This document shows, one piece after another, positions 14,148 through 54,776 of a stretch of 64,000 nucleotides of DNA. How positions within the stretch are numbered: position 1 is the stretch's first letter; each line of letters begins with the position of its first letter. The notes below the pieces were generated by a model that ran no database searches, was not told where the DNA came from, and saw only the letters and a program-made list of their open reading frames with translations. The stretch covers positions 345,344 to 409,343 of the forward strand of contig CBDANP010000006.1 in the NCBI GenBank assembly GCA_965197685.1, read 5' to 3'. The stretch is from Dehalococcoidia bacterium. GTDB taxonomy: Bacteria > Chloroflexota > Dehalococcoidia > Lucifugimonadales > UBA1123. The position numbers and the translations under genes are program-made.

Positions 14148-14165
14148 TCGCCGGACTCCCCGGGG

Positions 14166-17190: not shown

Positions 17191-17206
17191 GTAGTCACCC
17201 TGCCAT

Positions 17207-19189: not shown

Positions 19190-19343
19190 CAGCGACCTTT
19201 CACAATCTTGAATCGGGGGATAGCGACTTTATTGTAGCACTCGCGGCTTTGTAATCCACGCACCGCGACGCGCACAGGTCCGATATCCGCTTCCGAGAAG
19301 TGAGAGGGATTAGAACAGCCGCGAATGCGCATCGCTTATATGG

Positions 19344-29900: not shown

Positions 29901-30134
29901 CATCCGAAGGGGCGGGACGGGACGATATTCGTGACGCTGGAGGACGAGACCGGGGATACGCAGGTCATCCTGTGGCCCGGGGTTTACGCCGAGTACCGCA
30001 GGGAACTCAACAGCCAGGTGGTTCTGGTGAAAGGCCGGATCTCCGCCCGGGACGGCGCGGTGAACCTGATAGCCTCCGAGGTCCGGGCGATCCGGTCCGG
30101 CGTGAGAATGCCCCGGTCCCACGACTGGCGGTGA
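26987..30134 (+). pseudogene. dnaE2: Error-prone DNA polymerase III alpha paralog DnaE2 (ImuC), frame break near 27995
   Basis: PHP N-terminus YVELHAKSFFSFGEGAS...LALTDANLCGALEF. Continuation GRGRGSSVALLAGYLVGISHVDP...PDIDLDF...GVFLLQSPAQ... is in the +1 frame from 27999. The break is in cgggagagtcatgg. Confidence 0.85.
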
Positions 30135-33600: not shown

Positions 33601-36090
33601 GGGCGCGGTCCGGTCTCTTATGTCAAACCCCTGGTCTTGAGATGCGCCGAGAATTGGAACGCTGCCCGTTGCGATTTGAGTGTCGCCGGAGGATATGGTG
33701 GAGTCCGTTGAGATATACACGTGGAGCGTGGAGGTTGAAGATGAAGCGAGACCTTCATTGGCCACCCGGACGGTCAGTGTGAACATTTCTCCTGGTTCGA
33801 GTTCCGTATCTGTGGCCGTTACTGACCGAATCGCCAGATCTGGAACGGGTTGCGCGACAGTGACGCGCACGCCTGCCGAACAGTTGTTGGTGGTATCCGA
33901 TTCACCTTCAACCGGGACAACGCAGGCGCCGTAGTAGCGCGTCCCCGAATCTTCAGAGGCGGCCAGCCTTTCAGACTCGTCGTCGTCATCGGATGGGTCA
34001 AGGGCGCTTACCCTATCGTCAGTCTCAAGATAGGCGTCGTCGGTCGAGATGTGAGAATCGGTTGAGCGGTAGTAGCGAAGGGTGGTCTTGGGCGACCAGC
34101 CATCGCCTCTATTGCGCACGGTCGCATCCAGCGTGAATTCACCTCCCGCATCTACTTCACTTTCACTGGCGGAAGGCGATACCACGACCAGGTCGGGACT
34201 GCTCTGAGGGGCCTGTTCAACGGTTACCATTCTGCCGGTGGAGCAATTGTTCTGAGTGTTCGATTCACCTTCCACCGGGACAACGCAGGCGCCGTAGTAA
34301 TACACGCCTGCGCTTGAGGGCGCGTTCTGACTGATCGACTCGTCGTCGTCTTCGGACGGACCAAGACTGCTCACCGTGTCATCTCCGACTTTTGTGTCAG
34401 TAGAAGTGGAGATTGTGGAATCAGTTGAGCGGTAGTAGATCAGAGTAGGACTGACCGCTCTCTGGTCTCCACTATTGAGCGCGGTAGCGGTTATTCTGAA
34501 GGACTCTCCCGGACCCACCTCACTCTTGCTGACCGACAGCGTCCGGACAACCAGGTCGGGACTGCCCTGGCTGGTCTCCTCTACGGTTACCTGCGCCTCA
34601 TCCGAGCAGTTGTTGGTAGGGTTCGTTTCACCAGACACGGTGGCGACACAGGCCATGTACCGATAGTATCCGTCATCCTCCGACGCGGTGAACGTTTGGG
34701 TCACTCTTTCGCTTCCAGACGGGACAATGCCAATCACATTACTTACGATGTCTTCCGCATTTATGTCGGAGTCAGTCGAGCGATAGTAGTGCAGAGTGGT
34801 TTCGGACGACGCGCCATTCCCCGCATTATGAACGCTCGCGGTCAGTGTGAAGGACTCTCCAGGTTCCACATCGCTCTTGCTGATCTCCAGCGACTCGACC
34901 ACAAGGTCTGGCTCCCCCGGCGTGGAGTAGAACCTGCAGTCCGCCGGGTCCCCGACGCAGAAGTGGTCAGACCTGACGGACTCGAGATGCGATGCGGAGC
35001 CTGAGAAGATTCCTCTCCAAAAGTTTGCCGGGTGACTACTCGCTGATTTCACGGCTGAGCCCACTCTTGCCAGACCCGGTAACCCCTTAACGGGGAGGAA
35101 GATACTGAACACCGTGTAGTATTCATCCAGCGTAAGTTTGCCATCTCTAACTTTTGCGGTGAAGCCAAAATTTGTTCCAGTATGTAAGAAGCAATATACG
35201 GTGTAGAGACCGGGCTTGGTGGGCGTGAAATTGTGACCAACCATAAGGGTCGGATCCCCAACCTGTACGCCTTCGGTAGTTAACTTCTTCACTTCTCTCT
35301 CGACATGATTGCGTCCGGGCCCAGGAGGAGGATGTGATTTCACGAACTCCATTTCTCTGTAAATCTGGATGAAGGACGCCGCTACAAGCGATGACACTTC
35401 TTTCCTCTTTGCCCTGGACTCAAGCCTTACCGTATCCCCCACTTGCAGGTTCTTGGCAGAGGCCGAGCATTCGGTCAGTCTCGCCTTGGAGAAGGTGAGA
35501 TTGTTGCTCTGGAATTCACTAACCGAGAATGTCTTCCGAACGGCCCCCACCGACCTGTCGCGCCATCCTATGACAAATGGCGTCGTCCTATGTTCACGAA
35601 GTTCGCATTCCATGGCATAGCCGTTGCCGGGTAAAAGCGAAGCAAGTGGCCATGTATATATATATGAATCATCCGGTTCAAGTGAAAAATTGGGTATTCT
35701 GTGAGGTCGCTCCCAGCCATATAACTCTCTGGTGAAGGTGACTTTCACAAATAGCTTCGCATTCTCGCTCAGCGTGTTGTTCTTAACCGTAACGACCATC
35801 CTAAATGTGCCTGTGGCCGTTGGCCTGTCTGGAATTTCGCAGGAGATAGACGCTTCAGGACTCATTTGGACACGGCTCGGGGCGCTGTTGTACTCGCCGC
35901 CGCTAATGTCGTCCGATGTCACGCCGTGGTTGCGCGCGGAAGCCGCGTTGGAGGATAGGATTTCACCCGTCGCCAGCCCTTCGTAAGCGCGGACAGGACC
36001 CGGAACCTGCCTGTGCGACCAGCCGCCCGCCGCGAAAACGATACCGACCAGCGTCAGTATGGCAACTACAGCCGTAAACCTGAATTTCAT
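30637..36090 (-). CDS. 1817-aa secreted/cell-surface protein with 12 tandem CARDB-like domains
   Basis: N-terminal signal/anchor MKFRFTAVVAILTLVGIVFAAGGW. From residue ~392 there are 12 units of the form PDLVVES.SVS...PGESFTLTATVRNSGDG.S..TTLRYYRSTDSTIST.DT.VG...YYYGACVDSV.GE.NT.NNCS.G..VTV. Confidence 0.85.
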   Translation of the reverse strand: MKFRFTAVVAILTLVGIVFAAGGWSHRQVPGPVRAYEGLATGEILSSNAASARNHGVTSDDISGGEYNSAPSRVQMSPEASISCEIPDRPTATGTFRMVVTVKNNTLSENAKLFVKVTFTRELYGWERPHRIPNFSLEPDDSYIYTWPLASLLPGNGYAMECELREHRTTPFVIGWRDRSVGAVRKTFSVSEFQSNNLTFSKARLTECSASAKNLQVGDTVRLESRAKRKEVSSLVAASFIQIYREMEFVKSHPPPGPGRNHVEREVKKLTTEGVQVGDPTLMVGHNFTPTKPGLYTVYCFLHTGTNFGFTAKVRDGKLTLDEYYTVFSIFLPVKGLPGLARVGSAVKSASSHPANFWRGIFSGSASHLESVRSDHFCVGDPADCRFYSTPGEPDLVVESLEISKSDVEPGESFTLTASVHNAGNGASSETTLHYYRSTDSDINAEDIVSNVIGIVPSGSERVTQTFTASEDDGYYRYMACVATVSGETNPTNNCSDEAQVTVEETSQGSPDLVVRTLSVSKSEVGPGESFRITATALNSGDQRAVSPTLIYYRSTDSTISTSTDTKVGDDTVSSLGPSEDDDESISQNAPSSAGVYYYGACVVPVEGESNTQNNCSTGRMVTVEQAPQSSPDLVVVSPSASESEVDAGGEFTLDATVRNRGDGWSPKTTLRYYRSTDSHISTDDAYLETDDRVSALDPSDDDDESERLAASEDSGTRYYGACVVPVEGESDTTNNCSAGVRVTVAQPVPDLAIRSVTATDTELEPGEMFTLTVRVANEGLASSSTSTLHVYISTDSTISSGDTQIATGSVPILGASQDQGFDIRDRTAPADAGAYYYGACVDSVSGESNTQNNCSGGLEVTVSQAGNPDMRVESFTVTPTEAETGESLELRATVLNSGNGTSTVTTLRFYRSTDSTISAADIEVRRVSTPRLGPGQRSYQATFDYAPASAGTYYYGACVDSVTGESNASDNCSPGESVTVANPPPDLVVSSRVNDDRLQPGESFTLTATVRNAGGTMSAATQVRFYSSADASVSAGDTRVGTASVEGLGPLGATSKSISLNASNDAGTYYYGACVDSVADESNTGNNCSSGVLVTVSDSVQTGPDLVVESFSASASSVEIGQTFVLTATVRNSGDDASAGSGIVYYLSDDSTISTGDTLIVATPIPGRAPGEAVIRSHTETASAAGAYYYGACVNSVAGETNTTNNCSSAAQVDVTEAAQAEVDLSVSSPSVTVSEMEPGGRFRLDVTVAITGIDDPYYQFTLSYYRSGDSTISSSDTGVGSEFMSLEPPTYSERTGIVLFAPSDAGVYYYGACTNVTHEDETNTQNNCSSGVKITVTQPAQTSSDLVVQPPTVSEDSLETGERFTLSATVENTGNGPSASTTLRYYRSTDSTISTGDTEVGSDPVGMLDPSGAEAESISQTAPAYAGAYYYGACVDSVSGEADTTNNCSSGKQVTVAEAVQTSPELAVQAPSVSDDELETGESFTLNATVRNSGDGASATSTLRYYRSSDSTISTGDTEVGTDSVGSLEGGQTSAESITLTAPSDAGTYYYGACVDSVAGETDTSDNCSSGEQVTVSAPPETSPDLVVESPRLSDSSLGTSDSFTLSATVRNDGDGDSVVTTLRYYRSSDSTISTSDTQVGSDTVGILNPSDTEDESISLTSPSSSGTYYYGACVVSVSGESDTTNNCSDSVAAVVQSIGNYDYVVASFSVRDNVVGPGESVRLIATARNDGTGRSLSTALHYYLSTDSTITTSDTRVSSDQIPELNSGQTSRQSDSVSAPTATGTYYYGACFSAHPEELNTQNNCSSGVQVTVQ
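30640..34917 (-). repeat. In-frame tandem coding repeats (12 diverged units averaging ~119 codons) of the CARDB-like protein
   Basis: Counted from recurring PDLVV / RYYRSTDS / YYYGACV / NNCS landmarks in the translated ORF. The units are diverged at DNA level, not identical copies. Confidence 0.8.
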
Positions 36091-36339: not shown

Positions 36340-37758
36340 TCATCCGCAGTCCGGAAGCGCTAGGTTCGCGAGATCACTCATAGCCACGTCACGCAGCGCC
36401 GAGGGAACACATCCCGTGAACTGATTGCCCGAAAGGTAGAGACCTATCAAATTGTTCAGATTGCCCAATTCAGTCGGAATCTCGCCGCTCAGCTGGTTTT
36501 CTGACAGGTCCAGGTGCTCCAAACTGGCGAGATTGCCCAATTCGGACGGTATCCGTCCGCCCAGACGATTGCCCCGCAGCGATAGCAGCTCGAGGCTGGA
36601 AAGGCTACCCAGTTCAGTCGGTATCTCCCCACTCAGACGGTTGCGGCTCAGATCCAGCTGTTTCAATTCGGAGAGACCTCCCAGCTCAACCGGAATGTTG
36701 TCCCTCAGCCGGTTGCTGCGCAGGTCCAGCCGCGTCAGGCTGGCCAGACTGCCCAGTTCAGTCGGTATCTCGCCGCTCAACTGGTTGCCCCCAAGCGAGA
36801 GGGATTTCAGGCTGGTCAAGTCCCCCAGTTCAGTCGGTATCTCGCCGCTCAGTTGGTTCCCGCCAAGTGAGAGAGACTCGAGGTTGACCAGGTCCCCCAG
36901 CTCAATTGGAATCTCGCCGCTCAACTGGTTGTTCTCGATAGAAAGCGACTCAAGGTCTGTTAGCTCACCCAGTTCAGCCGGAACCTCGCCGCTCAACAGG
37001 TTGCTCCCAAGGAATAACGAGTCCAGTTTCCTCAGATCATCCAGATCGTCCGGTATTTCACCACTCAGTTCATTGTGTCGAATATCCAGAAGCGTCAGCT
37101 CTGATATATCAGTCAATTCGGACGGCAGTTCGCCTGACAGGCGATTTCCCGAGAGCCTTATTTCTGTAATGCGCCCTTCGTCATCAGTGGTGACGCCATA
37201 CCAGTCCCCAAGCGGACGTACACTCAGCCAGTTCGTGTTCCTGGCCCAGTTTTCTCCATCCGCGGCGTTATACAGAGCGACCAGGGCAGACCTGTTGGAA
37301 TCGGGGGAAAGCCTGTTCGCCACATCTTCGGGCGTCTCCCCGGTTACAGGCACGATGAGGTACTCGATGAACAGCTCGGCCAACAGGTCGCTCAGAGCGT
37401 CGGAGAGCGCGCCGCTGTCGTGGGCCTCCGTCATAACGGCCATGAGAAGGTCGAACGGATCCCGCGCGGACAGCCTGGCCTCTGCCTCTTCAGGCATCTC
37501 CCCGGTAACCGGAGAGATGAGGTACTCGATGAACAGCTCGGCCAACAGGTCGCTCAGCGGATCTGAGAGAGTCTCGTTTTTGTAAGCGTCGCTCAGCACG
37601 GCGATGAGAAATCTAAACGAGTCGTTCTGGGACGTGGCAATTGGCCCGGTATCTGAGGGAGACTGCGCCGGAGGAGCGGCGGAGATAGATCCAGACAAGA
37701 CAGAGATGATGCAGAGCAGTCCTAATGCGATGGATCCGAGTAAGGCCCTGCCGTACAT
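36340..37758 (-). CDS. Secreted leucine-rich-repeat protein (plant-type 24-residue LRRs)
   Basis: Start placed at MYGRALLGSIALGLLCIISVLSGSISAAPPA (signal-peptide-like). Duplicated LSDLLAELFIEYLI.PVTGE.PE motif. Then ALVALYNAADGENWARNTNWLS and ~13 repeats L..L..L.L..N.LSGEIP.ELG. Confidence 0.8.
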   Translation of the reverse strand: MYGRALLGSIALGLLCIISVLSGSISAAPPAQSPSDTGPIATSQNDSFRFLIAVLSDAYKNETLSDPLSDLLAELFIEYLISPVTGEMPEEAEARLSARDPFDLLMAVMTEAHDSGALSDALSDLLAELFIEYLIVPVTGETPEDVANRLSPDSNRSALVALYNAADGENWARNTNWLSVRPLGDWYGVTTDDEGRITEIRLSGNRLSGELPSELTDISELTLLDIRHNELSGEIPDDLDDLRKLDSLFLGSNLLSGEVPAELGELTDLESLSIENNQLSGEIPIELGDLVNLESLSLGGNQLSGEIPTELGDLTSLKSLSLGGNQLSGEIPTELGSLASLTRLDLRSNRLRDNIPVELGGLSELKQLDLSRNRLSGEIPTELGSLSSLELLSLRGNRLGGRIPSELGNLASLEHLDLSENQLSGEIPTELGNLNNLIGLYLSGNQFTGCVPSALRDVAMSDLANLALPDCG

Positions 37759-37953
37759 TGCAACCCCCGCTCTCTGCCGGATCTTGTGTCGGTGAACAGT
37801 CCATGGCGCTGGGCAGTATTCCCAATCGATACTACAACGCCATCTCCCAATCAAGACCGTTCGGCCAAGTGCCATGTTAGAATAGCAACTGAATTGACAA
37901 ATGTCTGTGCATTTCCAAAAATGCACATTACATACGGAGAATGTCCGAGGTCC

Positions 37954-39432
37954 ATGGCTTCTGATTCTAAAGACCAGCGGTCGCAAGCGAGGCAGGTGGG
38001 TATGCTCATGCGAGCGTACCGACTGGCATACCCCGTGGAAGGTCCGGCCAGGAGGCTCTCTCAGGAAGGCCTGCTCGAACTGATGGCCCGGGTGGACGAC
38101 GAGTACCGGCGCCGGTACAGTCACACGACCGTGGTACGCTGGGAATCGGGGGAGACGCTTCCGGACGCCGAGCGTCTGGAGGTGTTCGGCAAGGCGCTTG
38201 AACTAACCCCATCGGAAGTCGAGGGCCTCAAGAGACTGGCCAGCTTAGATATCGAAGAGTCCAGGCGAAAAGTCCAGGCGGCAGTACCGAGCGAGACTGC
38301 TGAGACATATCGCACACCCGATGACACCGCGTCCGGGGTTCGGGACGATCTTTCCTCCCATGCCAGGGAGTCGTTCAGATTCGCGCTGTCACGCTTCCTT
38401 CCGCCCGCGTCGTTCATGGCTGTCGCTGGCTGCCTCATGCTTTGGCTTGGATTGAGCGCCGCCTGGATGATGACACTGTATGTCATCGTCTCAGCCGGAG
38501 CGGTATTGTTCCAGACACTACTGAGAATGCGTACTGCGATAGAGCTCAGGGACATCATCTTCGCCTCCGTGTTCATCCTTCTCGGCACGCCCATGTTGCA
38601 GGGCCCAATTACCCACACGGAAACGTTTGGGCTCTCCACTATCGGGTTCTTTATGGACATACCGAAGGCATACCTGCTCTCCCTGATGGTCAACCTGGTC
38701 TCCGCGCTGGCTGCCAGCCTGCTGTTCGACTTCCTCCGGCGCTGGCGCTCCCAGGGACCTGATCGTAAGGGAAACGGCTATAGGCGCGCAGCTCTGATCG
38801 TGCCGCCGCCGCTGATCTTCGTATATGTGTGCAGTCACGCATCTGAAAGCCTCGGGATACTCCTGTGGGCTTCGCTCATCGCCCTCGTATATATGGTCAT
38901 CGTCACGGGGGCGCACCTGGCCTTCAGCGCCTATCGCCAGGAGAAGAGAGTCGCGGCGGGCAGAGCGGTCACCATTACCACATCGCTCGTCCTGTTGATC
39001 GGCGTCGGGGGACTGGCTCTGTCGGACAATGCGATTGTGGGAATACAACAGGACGACTTTGACGCGAGGTCTGAGGACATATGGCTTGTACCCACCACTT
39101 CTGATTCCGAGAATCCCGCCGACATAAAGACTCGATTCAGAAATCGCTCGTCCTTCTATGGACCGTACGGCGGTGATGCCACGTTCGATGTGTCGATTGT
39201 CGTTCAATCGCCAAACGGCGCCGCTGTTCGCCACCAGATGGACAATCAATCCTTTTCATACAACGAGGAGAGGGTCTTTACCACCGAGCACGCATTCGAT
39301 CAGGCAGGGATCTACACCATCCATGCGGAGATATACGATGTCGCCGGTCTTAAGGAAGAGTGGGACCCGTCGCATCGCTTTGATATTCGTTCCGAGACCT
39401 TCACCATCGCTGGGCCGAACGGTGGGTCGTAG
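37954..39432 (+). CDS. XRE-HTH membrane protein with C-terminal extracytoplasmic beta-rich domain
   Basis: HTH-like RRLSQEGLLELMARVDDEYRRRYSHTTVVRWESGETLPDAERLEVFGKAL. Several hydrophobic helices (aa ~150-400 of the long ORF). C-terminus ATFDVSIVVQSPNG...GIYTIHAEIYDVAG. Divergent from the LRR gene. The start (37954 vs 37921/37786) is uncertain. Confidence 0.6.
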   Translation: MASDSKDQRSQARQVGMLMRAYRLAYPVEGPARRLSQEGLLELMARVDDEYRRRYSHTTVVRWESGETLPDAERLEVFGKALELTPSEVEGLKRLASLDIEESRRKVQAAVPSETAETYRTPDDTASGVRDDLSSHARESFRFALSRFLPPASFMAVAGCLMLWLGLSAAWMMTLYVIVSAGAVLFQTLLRMRTAIELRDIIFASVFILLGTPMLQGPITHTETFGLSTIGFFMDIPKAYLLSLMVNLVSALAASLLFDFLRRWRSQGPDRKGNGYRRAALIVPPPLIFVYVCSHASESLGILLWASLIALVYMVIVTGAHLAFSAYRQEKRVAAGRAVTITTSLVLLIGVGGLALSDNAIVGIQQDDFDARSEDIWLVPTTSDSENPADIKTRFRNRSSFYGPYGGDATFDVSIVVQSPNGAAVRHQMDNQSFSYNEERVFTTEHAFDQAGIYTIHAEIYDVAGLKEEWDPSHRFDIRSETFTIAGPNGGS

Positions 39433-41433: not shown

Positions 41434-41870
41434 GTCAACCTCCCCAGATCGATTGCTACGATTCCCTTCGGCGTATTGCCATCCATATCACTTTGGAAGA
41501 ATTCAAGATATGTCTGGCCGTCCGCATCGGCAATGGCCCCTGCGGGGAACAGTTCTCCGAGGTATTTCGCCTTCTGCATCGCCCTTCCATGGTCGAATAT
41601 CAGGAGAACAGGATCCAGGGCCAGTGGATTGACTCCGATCTCCTCCCAGCAGGCGTCGTAATCATTAGGGTACGCTTTTTCCGTGACGAAGCTGCCATTC
41701 ACATAGGCCGTCAGGCAGCCTGCGTTCTTCAAGTTCTCCAGAGCGGCCCTGAGTCCGACGAGAAGCAGTCCTCTCCAGGGATTGTATCCGAACCTATTGT
41801 TCAACTCGTTCCAACTAGCCCGGTGAACACCCGGCGGAAGTAGGCCATCTTCATCGAATTCTGGTATCAT
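41430..41870 (-). CDS. Minimal nucleotidyltransferase-fold (MNT-like) protein, intact copy
   Basis: NGSFVTEKAYPNDYD (GS-x9-DxD). Paralog of 13..452. Confidence 0.7.
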   Translation of the reverse strand: MIPEFDEDGLLPPGVHRASWNELNNRFGYNPWRGLLLVGLRAALENLKNAGCLTAYVNGSFVTEKAYPNDYDACWEEIGVNPLALDPVLLIFDHGRAMQKAKYLGELFPAGAIADADGQTYLEFFQSDMDGNTPKGIVAIDLGRLT

Positions 41871-44721
41871 AATACAATGATAGCGTTGTGAAATTCCAAG
41901 TTCAATAGTATCGCCGTAGTAGTTGGATATGGAGCTACAGGCCGCTTAATCCTGTGGACCAATTATTGATTGGAGTTAGACTGGCGGCACGCATGGAGTT
42001 CGGTATGGATATGCCAACCAAGGCCTATACCGGGTGGAGAATCTGAGAAACTCGGAAGTCGCTATGAGAGCATAAGGGTAGTGGATGTTGCACCTGACCT
42101 TATCGACGATGAATATGTCGTCCTCTTTGTGGAGCCGTTGGCAGATGAGGCTACGGGTGTCGAGTTCTATCGAACCAACGGATCGGACACTCGGGGACAC
42201 CACTCGATTATCCGGGCAGCAGGTTGAGGGCAACTGGACAATTGGCTGCCGCACAAAGTATGACCCCGCCACTGGCGGAAGTATCCCAGGAGATCTGATC
42301 CCAGAAGTCCCAAGGCGGTGCGGTTGGAGCATTCAGTTCCAGGATCTGCAACCACTATATGCATCGGGAAGCCAATGCATCAGTGACGTGGAGTAAAGTC
42401 TAGTGACAGGACACAGACTTACGAGATCAGCCACAAGACGGTCTGGCGACGCCTACCAGGACCTGGTAGCGGCAGAAGTCATACTGGAGTTTCTAAGGCA
42501 CCCTTCGCGATACGAATGGGTTAAGTTAGAGGTTCGTGAAGCAGGCAAACTGGACGATGTACTCGCACTACGCAGAGATGGCGTTGTTGAAGCCACTCAG
42601 GTCAAATATTCGACGGACGCAATGCGACCGGGGGATCCGTGGACTTGGGAAAACTTCCTAGAGCCGTCTAATGGCGGAACGTCTTGGCTTCAAGATTGGT
42701 GTCATTCAGTAAAGCGATTGGACGCTATCTACGGTGGAACAGAGCCGAGACTGGTCTCGAATCGACGTCGTGGGGACGGCTTGTACCTCAATCCGGATAA
42801 TACAATCGACATCGAAGCGACTGACGAAAGTACAATCTCTGAGATACACCTGCAGCTCAGGGACGCTGCAACGGACTTTCTCACACGTTTCCGCTTTGAA
42901 GTTGATCAACAGGATTTGGTGGATCTGGAAGATCGACTGCGCTATCAATTTGAGCAACTAGGCGTTTCTGAATATGGCTGGCTGGCTCTGAAGGAATTCA
43001 TCGAGTCGCAGGTTCTACGTCCTGGGCCATCCGGAAGTGTTGAAATACGGCTTCCCGAGATCCAGTCTGCGTGCCGCTGGCGTAGGCTGAAACCGCTTCC
43101 ACAGAACGTGGAAGTTCCGGACGACTATACATTACCTCCGGACTTTCACGAGGATTTTCTCCAGCTAGTTGACCAGAGTAGCGGTTCGGCCGTCGTTCTA
43201 ACGGCAGGGCCAGGTATCGGCAAGAGCACATATCTAAGCTACTTGGTCCAGGAATTGGAAGAAGACGGACGGCCTGTGATACGGCATCACTATGCATTGA
43301 ATTCTTCCAGTCATGGGTCGGAGAGGTTAGATGCACGTCGTGTAGCCGAGTCTCTAATGGCGGACATCAGCGCCAAGCTAGGATCGGTTCTCGGAGAACT
43401 CGCCACTCAGAATCCAGACCCAGGTGCCATCAGTTCTTGGATTAGTAAAGTCGGCAGTCGCCTTCAAGGGGATGACCGTCATCTCGTCGTTGTGATTGAT
43501 GGGCTTGACCACGTATGGCGGGAGGAAGAGTCTCGTGATGAACTGAATAGGCTATTTAACTGGCTGATTCCCGTACCCGAAGGCGTTGTCCTGGTTGTTG
43601 GTACTCAACCGGTCTCGGATAGCCAGCTGCCGTTGCGACTAATTGAAGTTGCACCGAGAGATGAATGGACTGAACTTCCGAATCTGGACGCGCAAGCCAT
43701 AAATGAATGGCTTATTCATTACAGGAACCTTTTCCCATCTGAGTGGCAATCGGTCAACGAGGCCTGGCATCGTTCACAATTGGCCAATTCACTCCACTCT
43801 AGGACAGCCGGCCATCCACTTCTGCTTCGCTATTCGGTTGAGAGAATCGCGCACCAGGGAGAACTCCTCACAGTTCATTCGATAGAGGCTATACCCGAGC
43901 CCCCCGCAAATACTGTTGAAGACTACTACCGGGCACTTTGGGTGAGCCTGGCACCTGGAGCAAGAGATGTAGTCTTCCTGCTTGCTGTTGCCAAGTTTCC
44001 ATGGCCTGGCGACTCCCTCTATGAGTGTCTACAGCTAGTGGGTTATGGGAGAGAGAGTGCTTTGGAGGGTGTGGATGCCATACGTCATCTCCTCGGATTT
44101 GACGCGTTGGGAGCTAGAGCTTTTCACAGCAGCCTACTAATGTTTGCGACACTGCAATCTGAATTCCAAGAGCGTGCGGCAACTTTACGGACGCCGATCA
44201 TCGAGTGGCTAAATGGCCAAGCTCCTGAATATTGGCGTAGGTCGCATTTGTGGCTCCTGCAACAGGAAGGTGGGGATACCGAACCACTATTGTCCGGCTC
44301 CGACCGCCAGTGGACCGTTCAGGCGCTCGCAGAGGGACATCCTGTAAACGAGACAGCACTGATCTTGCAGTCGGCTGCATGGCAGGCATTAGAGGTGTGC
44401 GACTTCCGTGCCTACGTGGACCGCGGCATCCTGTCGGATGTCTTATCTGCCACCGACATTCAGGATGAGACACTACGTTGGATGTTCGCTACTCAACTGC
44501 ACCTATCCACAGACGATTTTCTGGAGCCTCGTGCACTTTCTGCCACCGAGGAGTTACCGGACTTACAAGTCCTCGAATTGGGACTTCATCTTCTCCGGCA
44601 AGGCCAGCCTGATAAGGCCGCTAAGTGCCTAACAGAAATGAACCGCAGGATCAGGCGACAAGTAGGTGATCATCCCTGGCAGAGCGATCCAGTTTATCGC
44701 CGTGCGGTCGTTGCGGAGTTA

Positions 44722-45893
44722 TACCATTCCAGGCTGATGTTGGCGTGAAGGAACTGGGAGGAATCTGATACTTCATCTATGCTCAAGCCAGTTCAGACGT
44801 TGGAGGGCAGCAGATGATTGGACGCCCGTTCAGAATGGAATGGCATGAAGAAGATACACCAGCAGCGCTGAAAAGGACTTACCTGTCCCAGAGAGAGATG
44901 TGAGTATTCGTACCCGACTGCACGTACTGTGGCTGATACGCTGCGACTGGCAGATCAAAGCGGCGGCAGAGGCTGTGGGAGTTCACTATCGCAGCGCCCA
45001 GAGATGGGTGGAGTGGTACAGAGAAGGCGGCCTCAACGAAGTTGTGTCCCGCAAGATGGGAGGCGTGGGTCAGCCGCGTTATCTGAACTCAGAACAGGAA
45101 CGCAAGCTGGAGGAGGAGGTTGGTGGAGGATGGTTCAGAACCGCCGGAGAGATCGCGGACTGGGTGGAGTCGGAGTATGGAGTGAGATTCAAAGGGAACA
45201 GCATATATAGTTTGCTGCAGCGGCTGGGATGTTCACCGAAGGTTCCCAGACCCAGACATGAGAAGGCGAACATGAAGGCTCAGAAGTCCTGGAAAAAGGG
45301 GGGCTCGGGAGTTCCCTTCGGAGAGCGGGAGTGAGTTCGGGAATGCTGATTGGGTTTGCCGACGAGATGAGAGTGGGGCTTCGTGGTATGATGCGCCGGG
45401 TGTGGGGAGTTCGTGGGGTGAAGGTGGTACAGCGATTGCAGTTGGTGTATGAGTGGAAGTACCTGTTCTTGGTGGTGGACTTTATGCGTGGCAAGCTGGA
45501 GTGGGCGTGGATGGACTCGATGAAGTCTGAGACTGTGGCGCGCGCGGTGTTGAGTGTTAGGCGATACAGGGAAGTGAGAGCGCTGGTGTGGGACGGAGCG
45601 CGGAGCCATCGCAGCGAGTTGGTGAAGAGTATAGCTGGGGTGAAGACGATAGTTCAGCCTCCGTACAGTCCTGAGTTGAATCCTGCCGAGCGGGTGTTCG
45701 AGGAGGTTCGGAGGTGGGTAGAGGGCCGGGTATATGGGAGCATAGAGGAGAAGGTAGCGGCGGTGAACGCCTGTCTGAGCAGGTTGGAATCTGATCCCGA
45801 ACGAGTGAAGTCTCTTGTGGGTTGGGAGTGGATCAAGCGGAACGTTCAGGGGCTGCCCGAACACTATGCGGCTTCTTCAAGCTGAAATGGTAT
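44722..45893 (+). mobile_element. IS630-family insertion sequence (boundaries +/-2 nt)
   Basis: Terminal repeats TACCATTCCAGGCTGA / TCAAGCTGAAATGGTA. Flanking TTA/TA on both sides, consistent with TA-targeting Tc1/IS630 elements. Confidence 0.75.
44814..45885 (+). pseudogene. IS630-family transposase in three frames
   Basis: MIGRPFRMEWHEEDTPAALKRTYLSQRE (stop in an agagagaga run), then the HTH part (ORF 44900..45334), then the DDE part (ORF 45331..45885: IGFADEM...LFLVVD...VWDGARSHRS...PPYSPELNPAERVFEE). The second shift is -1 at AAAAAGGGGGG (45293..45303). Confidence 0.75.
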
Positions 45894-48238
45894 TAGCTGG
45901 CGCGATAGGCGCAAGACCTGAAGGCATCGCCAGATTTCTCGACAATTTCACTTCGGAGAGTGTACAGGCTTCAATTTCAGAGAACTTGGTTGCTGGTTGG
46001 CGACACTCCCACGACGTGCGATCTGCTATCAAGACCTTGCTATATTCTACTAGTGCTCAAGTAAGAAGGCGTCTATCGCGCCATGTAGTTGTTCTGGCCG
46101 CGGGCGAAGGGATGCAGCTGCCATCTGCTGACCTGGAACAACTGACGGACCTCTATTCTTCGGTTTATAAGGTACTTTACGCTCCACAGACTGACACTTC
46201 GACACTTGAGGAACCTTCCCTGCTGGAGGATCGATCCAATTACAGCGTCAGCGACATGCCCAGCACCGTTGGTCAGTACGTTCACGACTTATTCTTTTTC
46301 CTCCTCATTCGCGAACTACGGTGTCCGGGTTCAGTGGAACATTGGCTCTCTCCAACAGGTATTAGTGGGTGGCTGTCCATTGCTATCACGAGACTTGCAG
46401 AGGGAGCAATTGAAATTGCCAGTGCTTGGCGTAACGACCGTGAATTTCCTGTGGCAAAGTTGTACAACGTCACCTCGGGCTTGGATAGACCCCATTGGAT
46501 GGAAGACATGGAGGAGGGCCACCGCGCCGAGGGTTTTCAAATTGCCTTGCGCACAATTACGGAGGATCTTCTCGTATTGCGAGGAGCCGGGGAGGGACAT
46601 TCGGAGTTGAGCTGGACAGAGGTGGAAACAATTGCTGCACATCGATTCGCGAGCTTTGGAGAAATCTTGCGGTGGAACGCAGATGGCTCGTTGCCGGTCA
46701 CTCGTGACGGTATCGAAAGCCTCTGCTCATCACTGGAGGAGGAACTCTCCCACACGATTGAGTCGTTTGGTGCTCGCGCTGAAACATTCGCCCTGTTAGC
46801 CATTGTTTGCGCCCGTAACGGACTGAATGATAAGGCAAAGTCTTACCTTTACAAGGCAGCCGAAAACTTAATGGGTTACGGCTATCATAAGGATTCATTA
46901 CTAGAAACGGCTTTGGATACTGTTGAGATAATTGCCGGACACCGCGAGGTGACACCAGACACTTGGTTCAGACTGGCACCAGCAATCGCCGCGATTAATG
47001 AATTCACAGATGGAGACCACACCAGCCATCTTCCCTCACGATTGGGAAGATCGCTACTGGGAATCGAACCAGCCCTCGCTGTTAACTACCTCAAAGAATT
47101 GATGGACTCCGAACAGTACGGTCATGTCGAGAGTATTTTGAATGTTCTGGCGCGCGATGGCGATCTGGAAGATCCAGTGGTCAAGGCTCTCGTAAGCACG
47201 TGCATCAGTCCAGACTCCATCAGGATCATAGAAGAACGTGCCAACAATTCGGACCAATCTGCGAGGGAAATGCTTGATCTCCCGCCCGGATTCTCCTCTA
47301 CATACAGCAGGAGGGAATCAGACTCTTCGGGAACTAGTGGTTTCTTTCCCGGCGACTCAGATGCAATGAGTGAGTTTGCAGGACCTGAGTGGCATTTAGA
47401 GTTCCCTCCTGAGCGATTCCACGAACTTGTGAACAACGACGCTCTATCAACTCCAACCAAGCGGTCCGATGTCTTGTCTATTTGGTTATGTCGCTGGCTG
47501 GAAACGGCTCTTGCGTGCGACGCACTAGACATTGCAGAGTCGCACTTTATGGAAGATGGCCGTTTGGAAGTCAGTAATCAAATGGTCAACGCCGTGCAGA
47601 GCGTATCCGGTCGCAGTCGAAGTTACGCATGGATTGTGCGATCTCAGCAGTCCAAGAACGGATGGTGGGAGAACTGGGAGGACTTTGAAGAAGTAACATG
47701 GCGTTGGGAGTGGATGAAGGATAATTTCCCTGACAGATGGCACTGTTTCCTGATAGCGTCCAGCCGGCCTCGCCGAGGGCTATCACCTGCGTTTGGTATG
47801 ACTTTTGTGCATTTGGTTCGCTATCTGGTTTACTTCGAGCGCTTCGAATACGCACATGCGGCGACTATCCAATTGACCGAGACGGTATCCGATCTAGTTT
47901 CCGGCCAAGACCTTCCTGTTCCATACTGGATAGGAGAGGGAGGGGGTTGACGCATGATCGAGACACTGGTTGACCGGTTGCGTTGGCCAGCTGCAATGGT
48001 TCGGGAACGCGCAGCCTCGCAGATTGGGTATCTTATAGCCAGTGGTCATGCCGAAGCTCGTGAATCTTTGACTGACTGGGTATCTCGCCAAGAATTGGAG
48101 AGTCTAGCTGCGATTGGCCTCCTTCCCTTCTTGTACGCAGCTACGAGGAGTGGAACTACGATACCCACCGCATCCGAATTGGGATCGGTGTGTAACGCTG
48201 GATCGGTGCTGTCAGAGATGTTTCTGAAGGAGTTCGAC

Positions 48239-49755
48239 GTAATTGATTAGCGGGTTGGGGATGGAGAAGGATTCAGAGGGAACGGCTGGGTACAGGAGCG
48301 CCCCTGAAGACGTCACAGACCGCATCCAGCAGCAGCGCCTCGTCGTCAACCGTCCGAGCCAGCGTCTTGATCACACTCGAGAACGCTGAGAACGCCTCAG
48401 CCCCTTCGTCGTTCTTCGAGCAGTGAGATACCTTCCGAGCTATCACAGCCCCACGCAGAGCCCGCTCAGCGCGATTGTTGGTCGGCTCTACGTTGGGGTC
48501 ATCCAGAAAGCGCAGCAGGTTGCCGCGGTCGTTGTGCCTACCGAGTTCATTCAGAAGTCTCTGATTGTCCGGGTTCGGCATCGGACGTTCGCGCAGATGA
48601 TGGGATACCTCTCGTTTCAACCGCTCAGACTCGGCGACAAAGTTAGACGCCGCACCGCGCCGTTCCGACTCCCGCAGCTCAATCGCCTCTCTCAGCAGTT
48701 CCATTAGACGCTTGCCAAAGCTTCGTCCTCTGCCCACCTTGGTCTCAAGAGCCTCACTGATAGAGCGCAGGATATGCGCCATACACTTCTGCTGTTTCAC
48801 ACCGGACAGAGTACGGGAGTCATAGCTCCGGCTCCTGTCCGCAACCATCACTCCACCATAGTCGGTGGGAATCAACTCTCTGACTTCCTCGTTGCGGTGG
48901 CGAGAGCGTACCCGGTACACGGTCGTCTCATCGGTCTCGAACGCCATCAGGAAAGCAGACTCTCCGCCCACACGCCAGCCCGTGTCGTCGGTGTGGACGA
49001 ACGCGCTTGAGCGCACCGAATCGCGCAGCCTGCGGTAGGCGTCACCCACCTCTCCCTTCGCGCGGCGCAGTGCGTCCTGCGTGATCGCGCTCTGGCTTAT
49101 CCTCACTCCGCTCAGAGTCCTGAGTATGGAGGGGATCTTCCTCACCGGAACGCCCGCGCTGTGGTGCAGTACATGGGCCGCCGCCATCACCCGCTTGCCC
49201 ACTCGATGGGCGCTCGCGCCGTACTGGTCAGGGGCTACATCCCTATGACCACCGCGAACCCGCTTTCCACACGACTGACACCGGCATATCTGTACCCTGT
49301 ATCCCTTCACATCGGGCCTGGGCATCGGGGGAATGTCGGTCACATAGGCGAAGCTCACTCCCTCATATTCGAGTCTGCCCCCACATCCCGGGCAACTGTC
49401 CCCGGCTACCGACACGTCAATGATCGGTTCCGTCAGGTCACCATGGGAAGGAGGCTTTCGGTAGCTGAACGATCCCCTGCCCGGCTTTCGGCCCGGACGT
49501 TTGGGCTTTGCGGTTCGTGTGCCCTTGGAGAACGGAGCGGCTTGGCGCTTTCCCGCTCGCTGAGCCTCGACGAGTCGCTTCTGCAACTCCCTGATCGTCG
49601 CCAACTGTCGAGCGTTCCGGTCTTGCAGTCGGTTGACCTGGACAAGAAGGTCGCCATGCTGGCAGGGTGGGAGGTCTTTGCCTGAACATATGGCCGCAGT
49701 ATAAGAATATGTTCAGAGAACCGCAATCCCCAAGCCGACGCCGCTAATCAATTAC
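48239..49755 (-). mobile_element. IS66-family element, copy 1 (1517 bp)
   Basis: Terminal repeats GTAATTGATTAGCGG (48239..) / CCGCTAATCAATTAC (..49755). 8-bp target duplication AGTTCGAC at 48231..48238 and 49756..49763. Confidence 0.9.
48273..49604 (-). CDS. IS66-family transposase (single-ORF type)
   Basis: Leucine-zipper-like N-terminus, zinc finger CPGCGG...CRCQSCGK, DDE core FVHTDDTGWRV...VMVADRSRSY...KCMAHILR. TTG start as called by the ORF track. Confidence 0.85.
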   Translation of the reverse strand: MATIRELQKRLVEAQRAGKRQAAPFSKGTRTAKPKRPGRKPGRGSFSYRKPPSHGDLTEPIIDVSVAGDSCPGCGGRLEYEGVSFAYVTDIPPMPRPDVKGYRVQICRCQSCGKRVRGGHRDVAPDQYGASAHRVGKRVMAAAHVLHHSAGVPVRKIPSILRTLSGVRISQSAITQDALRRAKGEVGDAYRRLRDSVRSSAFVHTDDTGWRVGGESAFLMAFETDETTVYRVRSRHRNEEVRELIPTDYGGVMVADRSRSYDSRTLSGVKQQKCMAHILRSISEALETKVGRGRSFGKRLMELLREAIELRESERRGAASNFVAESERLKREVSHHLRERPMPNPDNQRLLNELGRHNDRGNLLRFLDDPNVEPTNNRAERALRGAVIARKVSHCSKNDEGAEAFSAFSSVIKTLARTVDDEALLLDAVCDVFRGAPVPSRSL

Positions 49756-51422
49756 AGTTCGACCCATCATATATGGTTGATATGGGAAATTGCCGACATT
49801 CTGGGACTCCTCCAGATATTTGGAAGCCGTCCGACAGTGTTCCCCAACGGTCCTCCAGTGATATCGAAAGAACCTATCGCGGAATACTGACGCATTATGG
49901 AAACTCAAACCAGGCACGTCTGATAAGGCATTTCGACTACGAGCTGGATCACCTGCGTGAACGGAAGGGCAATACTCCAGAGAGTGCCAGATGGACACAG
50001 GGAAGGGCCGAGACTGGTTATCATCCTTTTTGGCACACAATCTCTGACGAGGTCTGTCTATCTGCCTACCTTCGTACACTCGCCTGGACTGCGTCAAAGG
50101 AAATTCTCCCCGAAGACCTTATTCTTCAGGCCGCAGCCTATGCGTCTCCTATCGATCTCGGATTGTGGGGAGTCCAGCCAACTAAGAAGCCGACTTGGTG
50201 GCCTCAGTTGACAGACGATTATGAGGTGGATGATATCGACACCCAAGTGGCTACGGTTATCGCTCAAGTGGAAAGTGCGACTAGGGCATGGGGCAACGGT
50301 GCCAACGTAATTCTTGCAGCAAGTGGATGCATTTCCCAGACGGATCTCAGGCAGTACGACCTAGATATTCGATCATGTTTCCAACGGACCGATGGCCCAC
50401 TTAGACCTACGAGCGAAGAATTATTCCAATATCTTAATTCGGTCAGTGCGTCCGTCAATCAAGATAACTCTCCTCTACGTTTCGAAGGGGTAGTGGATAC
50501 CCGTGAAGAATCGCAGTGGATGTATGACTGGTTAGTCATCCCGACTTCCGGAAGTAGTCAGCCGGTCGCTCTGATAGGTTGGCAGACGTGGCGAGGTGCC
50601 AGAAAGATCGAATGCCCATCAAACCAATTGATTGATGGCGAAATACGAGCAGTTTGCCGCGATTCCTCAATCGAGTATCAAAGTGACGACGGTTTGGTAG
50701 CACGCTGGAGTGACTGGTCCCAAGGCATATCCGCTCAGGTTGTACAGAGCACTATGTCTGCCAATGGTTGGGTGCTCACAGCTCCAAGGGAAATTGTGGA
50801 GCGATTCGCGAATCAAAACGGACTCCAACTTGCTTGGGCTTGGGAGATAACGAGCTATCTCAGAGAATACCCTTTTCAGAAATTTACGGAGTATCGAGTT
50901 CACGACGATTTTGGAGCAAATTCAGTGATACGTCCGTGGTAGTAGGGTTCACTGAAGTCAGGTTCATGTGTGGTGACCATTCATTCTTGGCAAGCAGGCA
51001 ACCGACGGTCCGACCATATGAGATTGACTTTACATAACTACTATAGGGCGAACCTTCCGTCGTTTTATGCAGCCGGCGTCTTGGGAATACCTCACCGCCT
51101 GTCTTCAGGTCCGGAGAACTTACCCTTGGCTCGGGCGCAGCTCGCGAGTCTCGCGGCAGCTGCGTCGCGTGAGATTCCCAACTGCACGGTCTGCTCCCGG
51201 GACTCACGAATTCTGATTGCCAACTTGGTCCCCCACAGCGCGTTCTACTCCAGAATATCTCATTTTCTGAGTGCCCGCTGAATGTACTGACAGAGACCCT
51301 CTTCGTTTCTTACCATAGGTAGATACAGGCACGGATGCAGCGCGCTCATCATTCGGTAGCATACCGATAGATGAGACTGAATGTTTCTCCAAAACTCCGG
51401 ATTCTATCTCGGGAGGATCGTC

Positions 51423-52304
51423 ATGGGCCAGCATAAACTGCCAGTGAAGCATCTTCAGCGATTCGCAATCAAGGATTGTCCCGACTTCATATGGCAGATC
51501 GATAAGCAGGAGTGTACTGTCAAGAAAATTCCGATTCAGGCTGTTTCTCAGGGTAAGAATCTATGGTCCGATAAAACGGAGCGGCTGCTAAACCAGACCG
51601 TCGAGGCACCGGCCAATCGACATCTCGATAAACTGGCAAACGGGATGCCAGCCGAGCGATTGGACAGCGAAGCTCGAGAGGCAATCGCCAGATATATCAG
51701 GGTAATGATTACTCGCTATCCCGAGCGTGTGAAGCGTGAGGCAGATAGATTCTTCACATCTGAGGCACTAACGGCACACCTGAACGAACACTGGCGAGCA
51801 TTGTTCAAGCCTCACCCCATCCCCGAAGTAGTGCGTGAGCATATCGAGGAAACAATCCATCGGTTTGGGGACGACCAGTTCCGGGCTGAAGTCATAGATG
51901 ATTACGACTGGGTCTGGCCCACTCAGAACAGTCCTGTCATAGCGGAGGTTCTTCGTTCTGAATGGAAGGTGTTCCAGCCTAGGAGCGAGCCATTCGTTAC
52001 TACAGATAGACCCGCTTGGGTTCCAAATGTAAACAACAGAGACACATTCGAGCTCTGGTTTCCAATCAGCTCACGCTACCTTCTCGCCGTTGGCGAGAAC
52101 ATGGCATCGTACGCGGACGAACGTCCTACCCGTTCTCACAAATACGTCGCTAAGTTCCCCGTTAAGCATTTCGAGAACGCAGACCGCTTCGTCTATTCGA
52201 GTCGTATCACCCGGAAGCAGCGGGAACTACTGGCACATTACAAGAAGGCACGCCCGCGAACTAAACGGAGGCGCCAGGAGTATCTGCAGAATAGACGACT
52301 GTGA
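51423..52304 (+). CDS. DUF4238-like protein
   Basis: Starts MGQHKLPVKHLQRFA, resembling the H-x-x-P-x-x-x-L-x-x-F opening of DUF4238. No other motif recognised. ATG 51423 preferred over 51381. Confidence 0.45.
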   Translation: MGQHKLPVKHLQRFAIKDCPDFIWQIDKQECTVKKIPIQAVSQGKNLWSDKTERLLNQTVEAPANRHLDKLANGMPAERLDSEAREAIARYIRVMITRYPERVKREADRFFTSEALTAHLNEHWRALFKPHPIPEVVREHIEETIHRFGDDQFRAEVIDDYDWVWPTQNSPVIAEVLRSEWKVFQPRSEPFVTTDRPAWVPNVNNRDTFELWFPISSRYLLAVGENMASYADERPTRSHKYVAKFPVKHFENADRFVYSSRITRKQRELLAHYKKARPRTKRRRQEYLQNRRL

Positions 52305-52770
52305 CGATTAGAGTCAGAGTCTAAACTGCCGACACTGGGGCATCGAGGGGCTGTCAAACCGACCTGCGTCGGCTCTAGGTGCGCCGTCTCCGTCGATTCC
52401 GGCGCTTCGGGGTATCCCACAGGTTATCCGACTCCAAAACCGGCCCTCTATGGGCCTATGTGAGCCACACCTTCACCGGGATCGGCGCCAAAATCGGCGT
52501 TTCCGGGCTGTATGAGCAGGATTCGGCACGGTAGCCGGCGGCGGGGATTTGTCGCTCGTGGACTTCAATTCCCGCCACTGTCGATGGTCGGACCGCCAAC
52601 TTGTCAAGATCAATGCACCCATGTTGCAGTCTGATGACGGAACTCTCCTCATCTCCAATGGCCGCAATCTTCTAGGGCAGCGAGCTCCCCGGGTTACCGA
52701 AACATCCTCTCCACCTGTGGTAGAGTGCGCGCAAGTCAGCCGCAACCCACACCGTGCGGGAGTTGACCTG

Positions 52771-53336
52771 ATGGTGATAGCAAAAAGATTCGTCGGACGC
52801 CTGGGGAGAAATCCCCCGAGTTACGCCTTCTACACAAGCGACAACCTCCCCATCCTGCGCGGCATCTACGCCAATCCCCTCCGCTACACCGGCGAGCTCG
52901 AGGTGGGCGGCAAGGAATCCTACGAGAAGACAGAGGCAGGCTGGGACACGAATGCAAAGCATCTGGACGAGATCAAGGCCCGACGCCCTGATGCGTTACC
53001 TGTCATAAAAATCGCCGGGAGTCTGTACGGCGACTCAGGCGCCGGATACCTCACGTTCATGGCCGTACGTCTGCTGGAGATGGAGCGCGTGATGAAGCGT
53101 GGCGGAAGCATTTACCTGCATTGCGATACGCGCATTTCCCATCTTCTCAGGATGATGATGGATGCGGTGTTTGGGCCGGAGAACTTCAAGAACGAGTTGG
53201 TCCTCGGAGTGCCGGCGAGGCGCGCCGGTGGCCGCAGATGGCCCCTGGCCCATGAGACCGTGCTGTTCTACACAGGACCCGCTTGGCATCGCTGGAAGAG
53301 AATTCTACTGCCGCGCGAGATTTTCAAATGGCATCT
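52771..53336 (+). pseudogene. N4/N6 DNA methyltransferase fragment with degenerate motif IV, 3'-truncated at an IS boundary
   Basis: YLTFMAVRLLEMERVMKRGGSIYLHCDTRISHLLRMMMDAVFGPENFKNELV...HETVLFY matches the central block of DPPY-type MTases. Where IDPPF(N) is expected the sequence reads ANPLRY. The ORF runs into IS701-like sequence. Confidence 0.5.
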
Positions 53337-53354
53337 CTACTCGACTTTGTACAT

Positions 53355-53692
53355 TCAAGCTGCATAGGCTAGCGATTCTATGAACCTGTTGAACAGGAGA
53401 GTCGGGATTTGTTGCATATCGGGTTTTTGCGACGACGTGCAGAAAGTCGCTGAAGCGCTCCACAGGTGACGACGAACCAGGGCTATGGCGTCAACGAAAG
53501 TCGGCTCAGTCTTGGCATACCAGGCGGCTGATCGTGGAGTCCCCAGACATTGATTGCCCAGCAGGTGGGCTGCGAGAGTTATCCAGGAGAACAGTCCCAA
53601 CAGCACAGGAGTGGTCCGGGCTATGGCACGATCCGACCACTGTCGTTGAGTCTCCACTCCAAGGTGGGCGCGTGCCTCCTGGAAAGTAACTT
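53355..53692 (-). pseudogene. IS701-like transposase, C-terminal fragment
   Basis: (V)TFQEARAHLGVETQRQWSDRAIARTTPVLLGLFSWITL... Continues exactly from ...WRIEV on the other side of the IS982-like insertion. Confidence 0.7.
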
Positions 53693-54601: not shown

Positions 54602-54641
54602 GGCGTCCTCCTTGGAGTTTGATGCAACCCCATTACAGACG

Positions 54642-54776
54642 CAGGGTCTTTCGGTTATTTGCGAATCGGAAAGCCCGCGCCTATATGTCATTCCCGCACT
54701 CCACCACCGTCATTCCCGCGAAAGCGGGAATCCAGTGGTCATTGAACCGGCGAATCTGGATAACCGAAAGACCCTG
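54642..54776. mobile_element. 135-bp MITE with ISAs1-type termini
   Basis: Ends CAGGGTCTTTCGGTTATTT / GGATAACCGAAAGACCCTG, nearly identical to the IRs of the full-length ISAs1-like element at 57340..58530. 10-bp target duplication ATTACAGACG (54632..54641 and 54777..54786). Internal hairpin ATTCCCGC-GAAA-GCGGGAAT. Confidence 0.85.

Follow-up and report, generated by a model that had tools for sequence, protein, structure and literature searches.

A two-gene antiviral system of the STAND NTPase (Avs) kind, with its sensor split over two proteins and with both genes broken by insertion sequence (IS) elements, was the best explanation for an operon in a 64,000-nucleotide stretch of a Dehalococcoidia bacterium genome (GenBank assembly GCA_965197685.1, contig CBDANP010000006.1, positions 345,344 to 409,343), here called the window. 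This interpretation, which includes a mode of action like that of SeAvs3, was given a probability of about 75%. The first gene, gene A, would encode a Cap4-type PD-(D/E)xK DNA nuclease and a STAND NTPase, followed by the ~870 amino acids (aa) that open a helical sensor, and the second, gene B, would supply the remainder of the sensor in the form of further helical repeats and a beta-rich domain, so that the two products together would be comparable to one single-chain Avs1/Avs3-type protein of ~1950 aa. Split-sensor systems resembling Avs1 and Avs3 are of a known Avs (NLR-like) kind; what is unusual is the two-protein sensor and the presence of a different IS element in each gene. The system is dead in this genome, and neither intact protein can be made, because an IS630-family element follows codon 773 of gene A and an IS66-family element follows codon 95 of gene B (Table 1).

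The ORF listing contained two open reading frames (ORFs) on the plus strand, 42403..44748 and 45815..47950, which an initial annotation of this DNA had taken for one gene knocked out by an IS630 element. The coordinates were all correct. Excision of 44722..45895 (1174 bp) left one stop-free ORF of 4374 nt, encoding 1457 aa and reading ...AVVAEL/AGAIGARPEG... across the junction. The excision is exact, because the junction L/A coincides with the conserved 'LA' of the family consensus, with zero residues lost or gained. Read without excision, the first ORF would give a product of 781 aa in which the nuclease and NTPase are kept and most of the sensor is lost. The interrupting element has a DDE_3 transposase, an N-terminal HTH, inverted repeats, and TTA flanks containing TA, all of which place it in the IS630 family, as had been proposed. 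Its terminal inverted repeats (TACCATTCCAGGCTGA / TACCATTTCAGCTTGA) are imperfect, with agreement at 13 of the first 16 positions, and the TTA flanks at 44719-44721 and 45893-45895 are compatible with duplication of either TA (1172 + 2 bp) or TTA (1171 + 3 bp). The element is single-copy in the window.

Database searches gave reconstructed gene A over 100 homologues with lengths of 1450-1490 aa, 99-100% coverage, and 26-54% identity. Since these continuous homologues span the reconstructed protein, the two ORFs are parts of a single gene, and at this position related genomes have gene A uninterrupted instead of two separate genes. Such end-to-end homology is far more than chance would give. 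The homologues came from sources that include Chloroflexota, Truepera, Paenibacillus, and Dehalogenimonas, and the nearest relatives were found in metagenome-assembled genomes (MAGs) of Dehalococcoidia. The IS-free alleles of gene A that the initial annotation hoped to see in related genomes were not found: protein records contained no close intact allele, the best relative being 54% identical, and an exact-junction DNA search of metagenome contigs gave 0 matches.

Reconstructed gene A has the parts expected of an Avs protein, namely an N-terminal effector, a STAND P-loop NTPase with a winged helix, and a large C-terminal TPR-like sensor. The effector is a Cap4-type PD-(D/E)xK nuclease spanning aa ~1-230, and PADLOC models for effectors of this type matched aa 8-122 at ~1e-15. 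The weak point of this assignment is that the Pfam Cap4_nuclease model matched gene A alone at E 0.079 only; the same model matched 8 of the 25 homologues in the family alignment at E <= 0.01 (best 1.9e-7). In the nuclease motif (E43, D51-D52, Q66-V67-K68; nt 42529-42606), E43, D51, D52, and Q66 were invariant across the 25-member alignment and V67 and K68 were present in at least 90% of it. The STAND NTPase and its winged-helix domain occupy aa ~246-585. Pfam matches over aa ~250-440 were to NPHP3_N (6.7e-10), AAA_16, AAA_22, and NACHT, and the PADLOC Avs1b NTPase model matched aa 246-583 (3.5e-16). G273, K274, S275, and T276 of Walker A (GPGIGKST, nt 43207-43230) and the D366, G, L, D369, and H370 residues of Walker B (VVVIDGLDH, nt 43486-43512) were invariant, and GHP and FHSS motifs were also conserved. 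Two motifs stand out farther along the protein: HKD at aa 1104-1106 (nt 46886-46894), with K and D invariant and H in at least 90% of members, and FTDGDxT at aa 1143-1149 (nt 47003-47023), with T, D, D, and T invariant. The nuclease pattern and both Walker motifs, all invariant or nearly so, had been placed correctly in the initial annotation; the Cap4 nuclease and STAND similarity that it suggested appeared in profile searches, and the Avs-type layout of effector, NTPase, and sensor was borne out by PADLOC, Pfam, hhalign, and the predicted structure of the sensor.

That annotation had described a single-gene system, which did not hold up, because a 487-aa partner, gene B, lies directly downstream. 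Its ATG is 3 nt past the gene A stop codon, and the ribosome-binding stretch that precedes it (GGAGAGGGAGGGGG) sits within the end of gene A. An unannotated ORF was present directly 3' of the STAND gene in the first two related contigs inspected, one of which (L001) encodes a partner whose first 95 aa are 64% identical to the product of window ORF 47954..48250 and whose aa 106-487 are 53% identical to that of window ORF 49773..50942. Between these ORFs is an element with a transposase gene on the minus strand (48273..49604). A DDE_Tnp_IS66 domain, inverted repeats that start with GTAA (GTAATTGATTAGCGG / CCGCTAATCAATTAC; 15 bp perfect), and an 8-bp target duplication (AGTTCGAC, at 48231-48238 and 49756-49763) identify it as a member of the IS66 family, single-ORF type. 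Removal of the element and one copy of the duplication restored an in-frame gene B protein of 487 aa. The element is active or was recently active in the source genome, because two further copies are present in the window, at 54904-56420 (99.2% identical) and 59636-61174 (89%). Gene B had zero matches in Pfam, PADLOC, and NCBIfam, and an exact-junction DNA search of metagenome contigs for its IS-free allele gave 0 matches. Recent inactivation of the operon, also suggested by the initial annotation, is plausible, with target duplications intact, no other stop codon or frameshift, and all family-invariant residues kept.

The association between the two genes was evaluated in 80 related loci, 5 of which end at a contig edge, with the partner detected by tblastn and a profile hidden Markov model. 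Gene B was immediately downstream of gene A and on the same strand in 72 of the 75 informative loci, which came from many phyla. For the 61 loci that allowed a measurement, the median gap between the STAND stop codon and the start of the partner was 8 nt, with a 4-nt overlap in 15 of them, and the two genes are probably translationally coupled. Natural fusions, in which the partner forms the C terminus without a linker domain, were common, with lengths of 1916-2006 aa, and roughly one quarter of the relatives had this form. In one fused relative (P0098) hhalign located the partner at aa 1474-1952 with a probability of 100, and an intact fused protein of 1922 aa is encoded on a K. pneumoniae plasmid (WP_234262172.1). 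A profile search of 1.84 billion proteins returned 715 partner clusters at 50% identity, and about 26 of the best 150 representatives among these had the fused form. This pattern of fusion and fission among relatives is strong evidence from sequence comparison that A and B would act as one physical unit. Clustering of all ORFs of at least 150 aa from the 80 loci and the window identified no third conserved gene in the neighborhood; the next-best family was found in 7 loci.

Gene A relatives are widely distributed. A scan of a collection with one genome per species produced 236 matching stretches, a few of which were archaeal, and the family ranges from Chloroflexota through to plasmids of Klebsiella. 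Recognition of the family by PADLOC (2023) and NCBIfam (2026) is limited to the domain level. No experimentally tested family member was found in the literature, and a full-text literature search with homologue accessions gave no match.

Predicted structures placed both parts of the sensor near SeAvs3. The AlphaFold model of the gene A sensor (aa 585-1457) was all-helical (pLDDT 86, pTM 0.87), and that of gene B (pLDDT 90.5, pTM 0.90) had helical repeats in its N-terminal part and then a beta-rich domain. The models were compared by Foldseek with a copy of the PDB covering releases up to April 2026. The sole significant match for the gene A sensor was 8dgc_B (E 3.4e-7, TM 0.51, 999 alignment columns), the next matches being generic TPR or HEAT proteins with TM scores of ~0.2 or lower. 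Gene B matched the same structure (8dgc_B, E 4.8e-8; 8dgc_A, E 2.2e-7; probability 1.00, TM 0.50), and its next match after the 8DGC chains had an E of 0.08 and a TM score of 0.09. 8DGC is SeAvs3 bound to the PhiV-1 terminase; the SeAvs3 residues by which terminase-bound ATP is read, Y1714 and H1770, belong to its C-terminal part (bioRxiv 10.64898/2026.08.25.746987). The initial annotation could assign the sensor to no nameable repeat family and suggested that it might recognize a new trigger. With models of both sensor parts matching SeAvs3, the sensor can be placed, and the hope for a novel one is probably wrong, its modeled fold being that of Avs3. The combined length of A and B, 1944 aa, may be compared with 2004-2028 aa for the SeAvs3 chains and 1931 aa for the Avs1b profile. 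A search of viral structures (BFVD) with the gene B model found nothing, giving no indication of a phage-borne mimic.

Avs1b was the sole STAND family model matched in PADLOC and NCBIfam, and the match was confined to the NTPase region. For a comparison of profiles, the bona fide avs1a-avs1b-avs1c locus of Cupriavidus necator pHG1 was retrieved and an Avs1b family alignment was built, and hhalign aligned aa 246-751 of the gene A profile with 206-699 of the Avs1b profile (probability 99.2, E 2.3e-19). In other words, the family shares with Avs1b (NF041810, PADLOC PDLC02159) the NTPase, the winged helix, and the first ~150 aa of the sensor, all in the same position, as well as overall length. 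However, Avs1b has a trypsin-like protease as its effector, whereas the family described here has a Cap4 nuclease, and the partners of Avs1b, the MBL hydrolase Avs1a and the small Avs1c, are both absent here. The family is a distant relative of Avs1, with an NTPase module and sensor start in common, a different effector, and a sensor that is Avs3-like at the fold level only. According to Evans et al. (2026, PMC13601566), the structure of Avs1 itself is predicted to resemble that of Avs3 very closely. With SeAvs3 the family shares an N-terminal Cap4 nuclease, a STAND NTPase, a very large and mostly helical sensor, and a similar total size, but SeAvs3 is a single chain and the sensor here is divided over two genes.

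Evans et al. (2026, PMC13601566) mention, in one sentence, a split-TPR variant of Avs1, and the locus is probably this variant. The two are alike in their split sensor and Avs1-like NTPase and, in one relative, in the presence of Upx as a neighbor. A full-length Upx gene (PADLOC E 1.4e-244) directly follows the STAND and partner pair in Bradyrhizobium sp. LMG 9283 (L032, 13804-17616). According to tblastn, from which highly diverged homologues could escape, Upx was absent from the window and present in this one of the 80 loci only; seven other large downstream neighbors in related loci did not include Upx.

SeAvs7 provides a further comparison. It is a Cap4-STAND-TPR protein that senses the major capsid protein and incorporates host EF-Tu, and tetramerization activates Cap4 in both SeAvs7 and SeAvs3 (Lee et al. 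2026, PMC13581612). The family shares with SeAvs7 the Cap4 nuclease, which in SeAvs7 is activated by STAND tetramerization, and SeAvs7 is also a precedent for a second polypeptide in the sensing complex (PMC13581612). The second protein of SeAvs7 is a housekeeping host factor, in contrast to the dedicated operon partner found here. No structural match to Avs7 was seen in the PDB copy used.

Two other kinds of defense system were considered and rejected. For Lamassu, the LmuA match (1e-6) covered the nuclease domain only and no SMC gene was conserved nearby. For CBASS, the SAVED_PDDEXK match covered aa 8-122 only and no SAVED or cyclase gene was conserved nearby.

By analogy with SeAvs3, a conserved phage protein would be held in the cavity formed jointly by A and B, the large terminase subunit being the most probable one. 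Binding of this protein would release the NTPase, which would then bind ATP and tetramerize, as in SeAvs3 and SeAvs7, and the Cap4 domains brought together in the tetramer would cut double-stranded DNA, so that the infection is aborted. Of these steps, the trigger is the least secure. The large terminase is the most likely candidate because the sensor and partner models match SeAvs3 only, and on this analogy the odds that it is the trigger are roughly even; the most likely trigger would be a known one rather than the new one first suggested.

Several observations weigh against an SeAvs3-like, two-protein sensor. The link between the locus and SeAvs3 comes entirely from structure comparison, because nothing relevant emerged when the PDB was searched, by sequence and by profile, with the whole STAND protein, its alignment, and the partner alignment. 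A TM score of ~0.5 between such models signifies a match of fold and no proof of the same ligand. The match was obtained at the fold level, and a correspondence of A and B to consecutive, non-overlapping parts of SeAvs3 is presumptive. The sequence relationship to Avs1 also has limits. The NCBIfam Avs1b model (NF041810) scored 52 bits on gene A, compared with a cut-off of 1500, and because of this score the family does not qualify as an Avs1b equivalog. The distal part of the gene A sensor, past aa ~750, did not align with the Avs1b profile, and hhalign detected no homology between gene B and either one Avs1b sequence or the Avs1b family profile. An identification as Avs1b was rejected on the basis of the 52-bit score, the Cap4 effector, the absence of an Avs1a or Avs1c gene, and a partner unrelated to the Avs1b C terminus. 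In addition, three loci in Dehalococcoidia MAGs (L006, L015, and L034) have an intact gene A without gene B; either the partner has been lost there or gene A is able to function by itself. A reverse-strand gene of ~352 aa occupies the place of the partner in these loci (about 12350-13500).

The alternative that survives best keeps the same split-sensor Avs architecture and replaces the terminase with another conserved phage protein or a perturbation of the host; the family would then be one of the ~90 Avs families, possibly among Avs8-24. This is a real possibility, less probable than not being so. At least 90 structurally distinct Avs families have been described, and families with unrelated triggers, Avs7 for example, share the layout of Cap4, STAND, and TPR (Lee et al. 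2026, PMC13581612). The SeAvs3 match (E ~1e-7, TM 0.5) misses the E 1e-10 cut-off used for clustering in the same study, which preferentially tested representatives from Enterobacteriaceae, and Klebsiella homologues of the present family exist. Sequence homology with Avs1b that ends at aa ~750 and a gene B without Avs1b homology agree with a different trigger as well. On the other hand, SeAvs3 was the sole significant PDB match for both halves of the sensor, with no other Avs entry among the matches listed. Other solved Avs structures should presumably have been in the PDB library too. The sole STAND family with sequence similarity, Avs1b, is a sensor of terminase, and the adjacency of Upx in Bradyrhizobium agrees with the published account of the split Avs1 variant (PMC13601566).

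Rather unlikely is an arrangement in which the detachable 487-aa subunit is a functional device rather than the product of a neutral fission of the gene; it could be an exchangeable or separately controlled specificity module, perhaps one that other effectors, such as the occasional neighbor Upx, could also use. The HKD and FTDGDxT loops of gene A and Trp-rich motifs of gene B could then form a site for reading a nucleotide or other ligand, and a ligand-bound state or a trigger other than terminase would be sensed. 

It is more improbable still that gene B is not part of the sensor and is instead a separate regulator (for instance an inhibitor, or a brake of the antitoxin kind) or second effector that acts on the STAND protein. 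Most loci encode gene B as a polypeptide of its own, Pfam, PADLOC, and NCBIfam offer no annotation for it, and three loci keep gene A without it. However, many lineages have it fused in frame to the STAND C terminus without an intervening linker domain, SeAvs3 itself is the chain matched by its model, and no catalytic motif was recognized in it. The total for A and B is also about the length of the fused homologues, of the Avs1b profile, and of the 2004-aa Avs3 chain. The least credible explanation is the one first given, a single-gene Avs-like protein with one IS insertion and a novel C-terminal sensor for a new trigger: gene A alone does have the classic layout of effector, NTPase, and sensor, but a conserved and often fused partner exists, that partner carries a second IS element, and the fold of the gene A sensor matches SeAvs3.

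Table 1. Positions of the broken STAND and partner genes, their IS elements, and other features of the 64-kb window.
Feature	Position	Strand	Remarks
Gene A 5' part, aa 1-773	42403..44721	+	Cap4-type nuclease, STAND NTPase with winged-helix domain, sensor start
IS630-family element, 1171 bp	44722..45892	+	TACCATT...AATGGTA ends
IS630-family transposase, HTH_33/HTH_23 ORF	44900..45334	+	Pfam HTH_33 4e-16
IS630-family transposase, DDE_3 ORF	45331..45885	+	Pfam DDE_3 2.4e-11; frame differs from HTH ORF
Gene A 3' part, aa 774-1457	45896..47950	+	All-helical sensor; in-frame reconstruction
Gene B 5' part, aa 1-95	47954..48238	+	64% identical to L001 partner N-terminus
IS66-family element, 1517 bp	48239..49755	-	DDE_Tnp_IS66 2.8e-34
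Gene B 3' part, aa 96-487	49764..50942	+	Helical region, then beta-rich C-terminal domain
Type I restriction-modification, hsdR	10724-13891	-	
Type I restriction-modification, hsdS	14166-15593	-	
Type I restriction-modification, hsdM	17207-18436	-	
DDE_Tnp_1-type transposase	5065-6579		
DDE_Tnp_1-type transposase	53714-54691		
DDE_Tnp_1-type transposase	57359-58198		
DDE_5 transposase	56417-57250		
HTH_23 protein	7366-8853		Weak rve_3 match

Defense genes were frequent beside the relatives of this operon and included type I restriction-modification, type III methyltransferase, TmtA, retron PRTase, and SNF2/HKD helicase genes. In the window, the type I restriction-modification system (10724-20279) gives the operon a defense-island context. 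A gene for an AAA_21 ATPase with a weak DUF4435 match (15559-17190, minus strand) lies between hsdS and hsdM, and an HNH_2 endonuclease gene (19344-20279, minus strand) is near the system. Divergent from the STAND gene, at 40348-41870 on the minus strand, are a DUF6932 gene and a gene for a 361-aa HTH_3 protein. The DUF6932 protein has 146 aa (Pfam 6e-38; PADLOC candidate PDC-M63A, 5.8e-9), and the same pair recurs in L001 (1-836), ~7 kb upstream of the homologue. The pair was rejected as part of the system since, despite this recurrence, the family as a whole does not conserve it; it may form a small defense or toxin-antitoxin-like module of its own. Downstream of broken gene B on the plus strand are a DUF4238 gene (51381..52304) and a fragment of an N6_N4 DNA methylase gene (52549..53367).

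Other genes in the window are farther from the operon. A DNA polymerase III alpha (DnaE-like) gene on the plus strand is divided between two frames: ORF 26987..28117 has the PHP domain, and ORF 27999..30134, which overlaps it, has the pol3 alpha, finger, HHH, and OB domains. The split reflects a frameshift, pseudogenization, or an error in sequencing. On the minus strand, 30637..36090 encodes a 1817-aa protein with at least 11 CARDB repeats and alpha-2-macroglobulin-like domains, which adjoins a gene for a 594-aa leucine-rich-repeat protein (36340..38124). These two genes are the source of most of the direct-repeat families in the window.

The window is rich in IS elements, with at least nine transposase genes, including that of the IS630 element and three of the IS66 family. 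Because of this load, two IS insertions in a 5.9-kb operon need no special explanation. It is possible that the insertions relieved the cost of a suicidal defense gene.

Plasmid-borne relatives have also been affected by IS elements. Fused single-chain members are found on Klebsiella plasmids, L082 and L083 (NZ_CP054968.1, 6236-12004). The first of these, from pC240_1 (CP067932.1, 6470-13004), starts at family position ~104, directly after ISKpn26, and is without the nuclease core. A gene on a plasmid of Moraxella sp. DOX410 (L084, 6242-9675) ends at an IS3 element, and its membership in the family is by NTPase similarity only. IS damage thus recurs in this family, with the Moraxella gene only a possible case.

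The locus itself is pseudogenized and of little direct importance; what gives it value is the family to which it points. Together with the IS-truncated Klebsiella relative, and possibly that from Moraxella, the double IS insertion is an example of the decay of defense genes in IS-rich islands. The partner would be overlooked if such loci were annotated as single-gene Avs systems or as a pair of pseudogene fragments. In this family the sensor exists either as one chain or as two linked chains, which makes it a natural system for studying how an NLR-like sensor is assembled and which part of it provides specificity.

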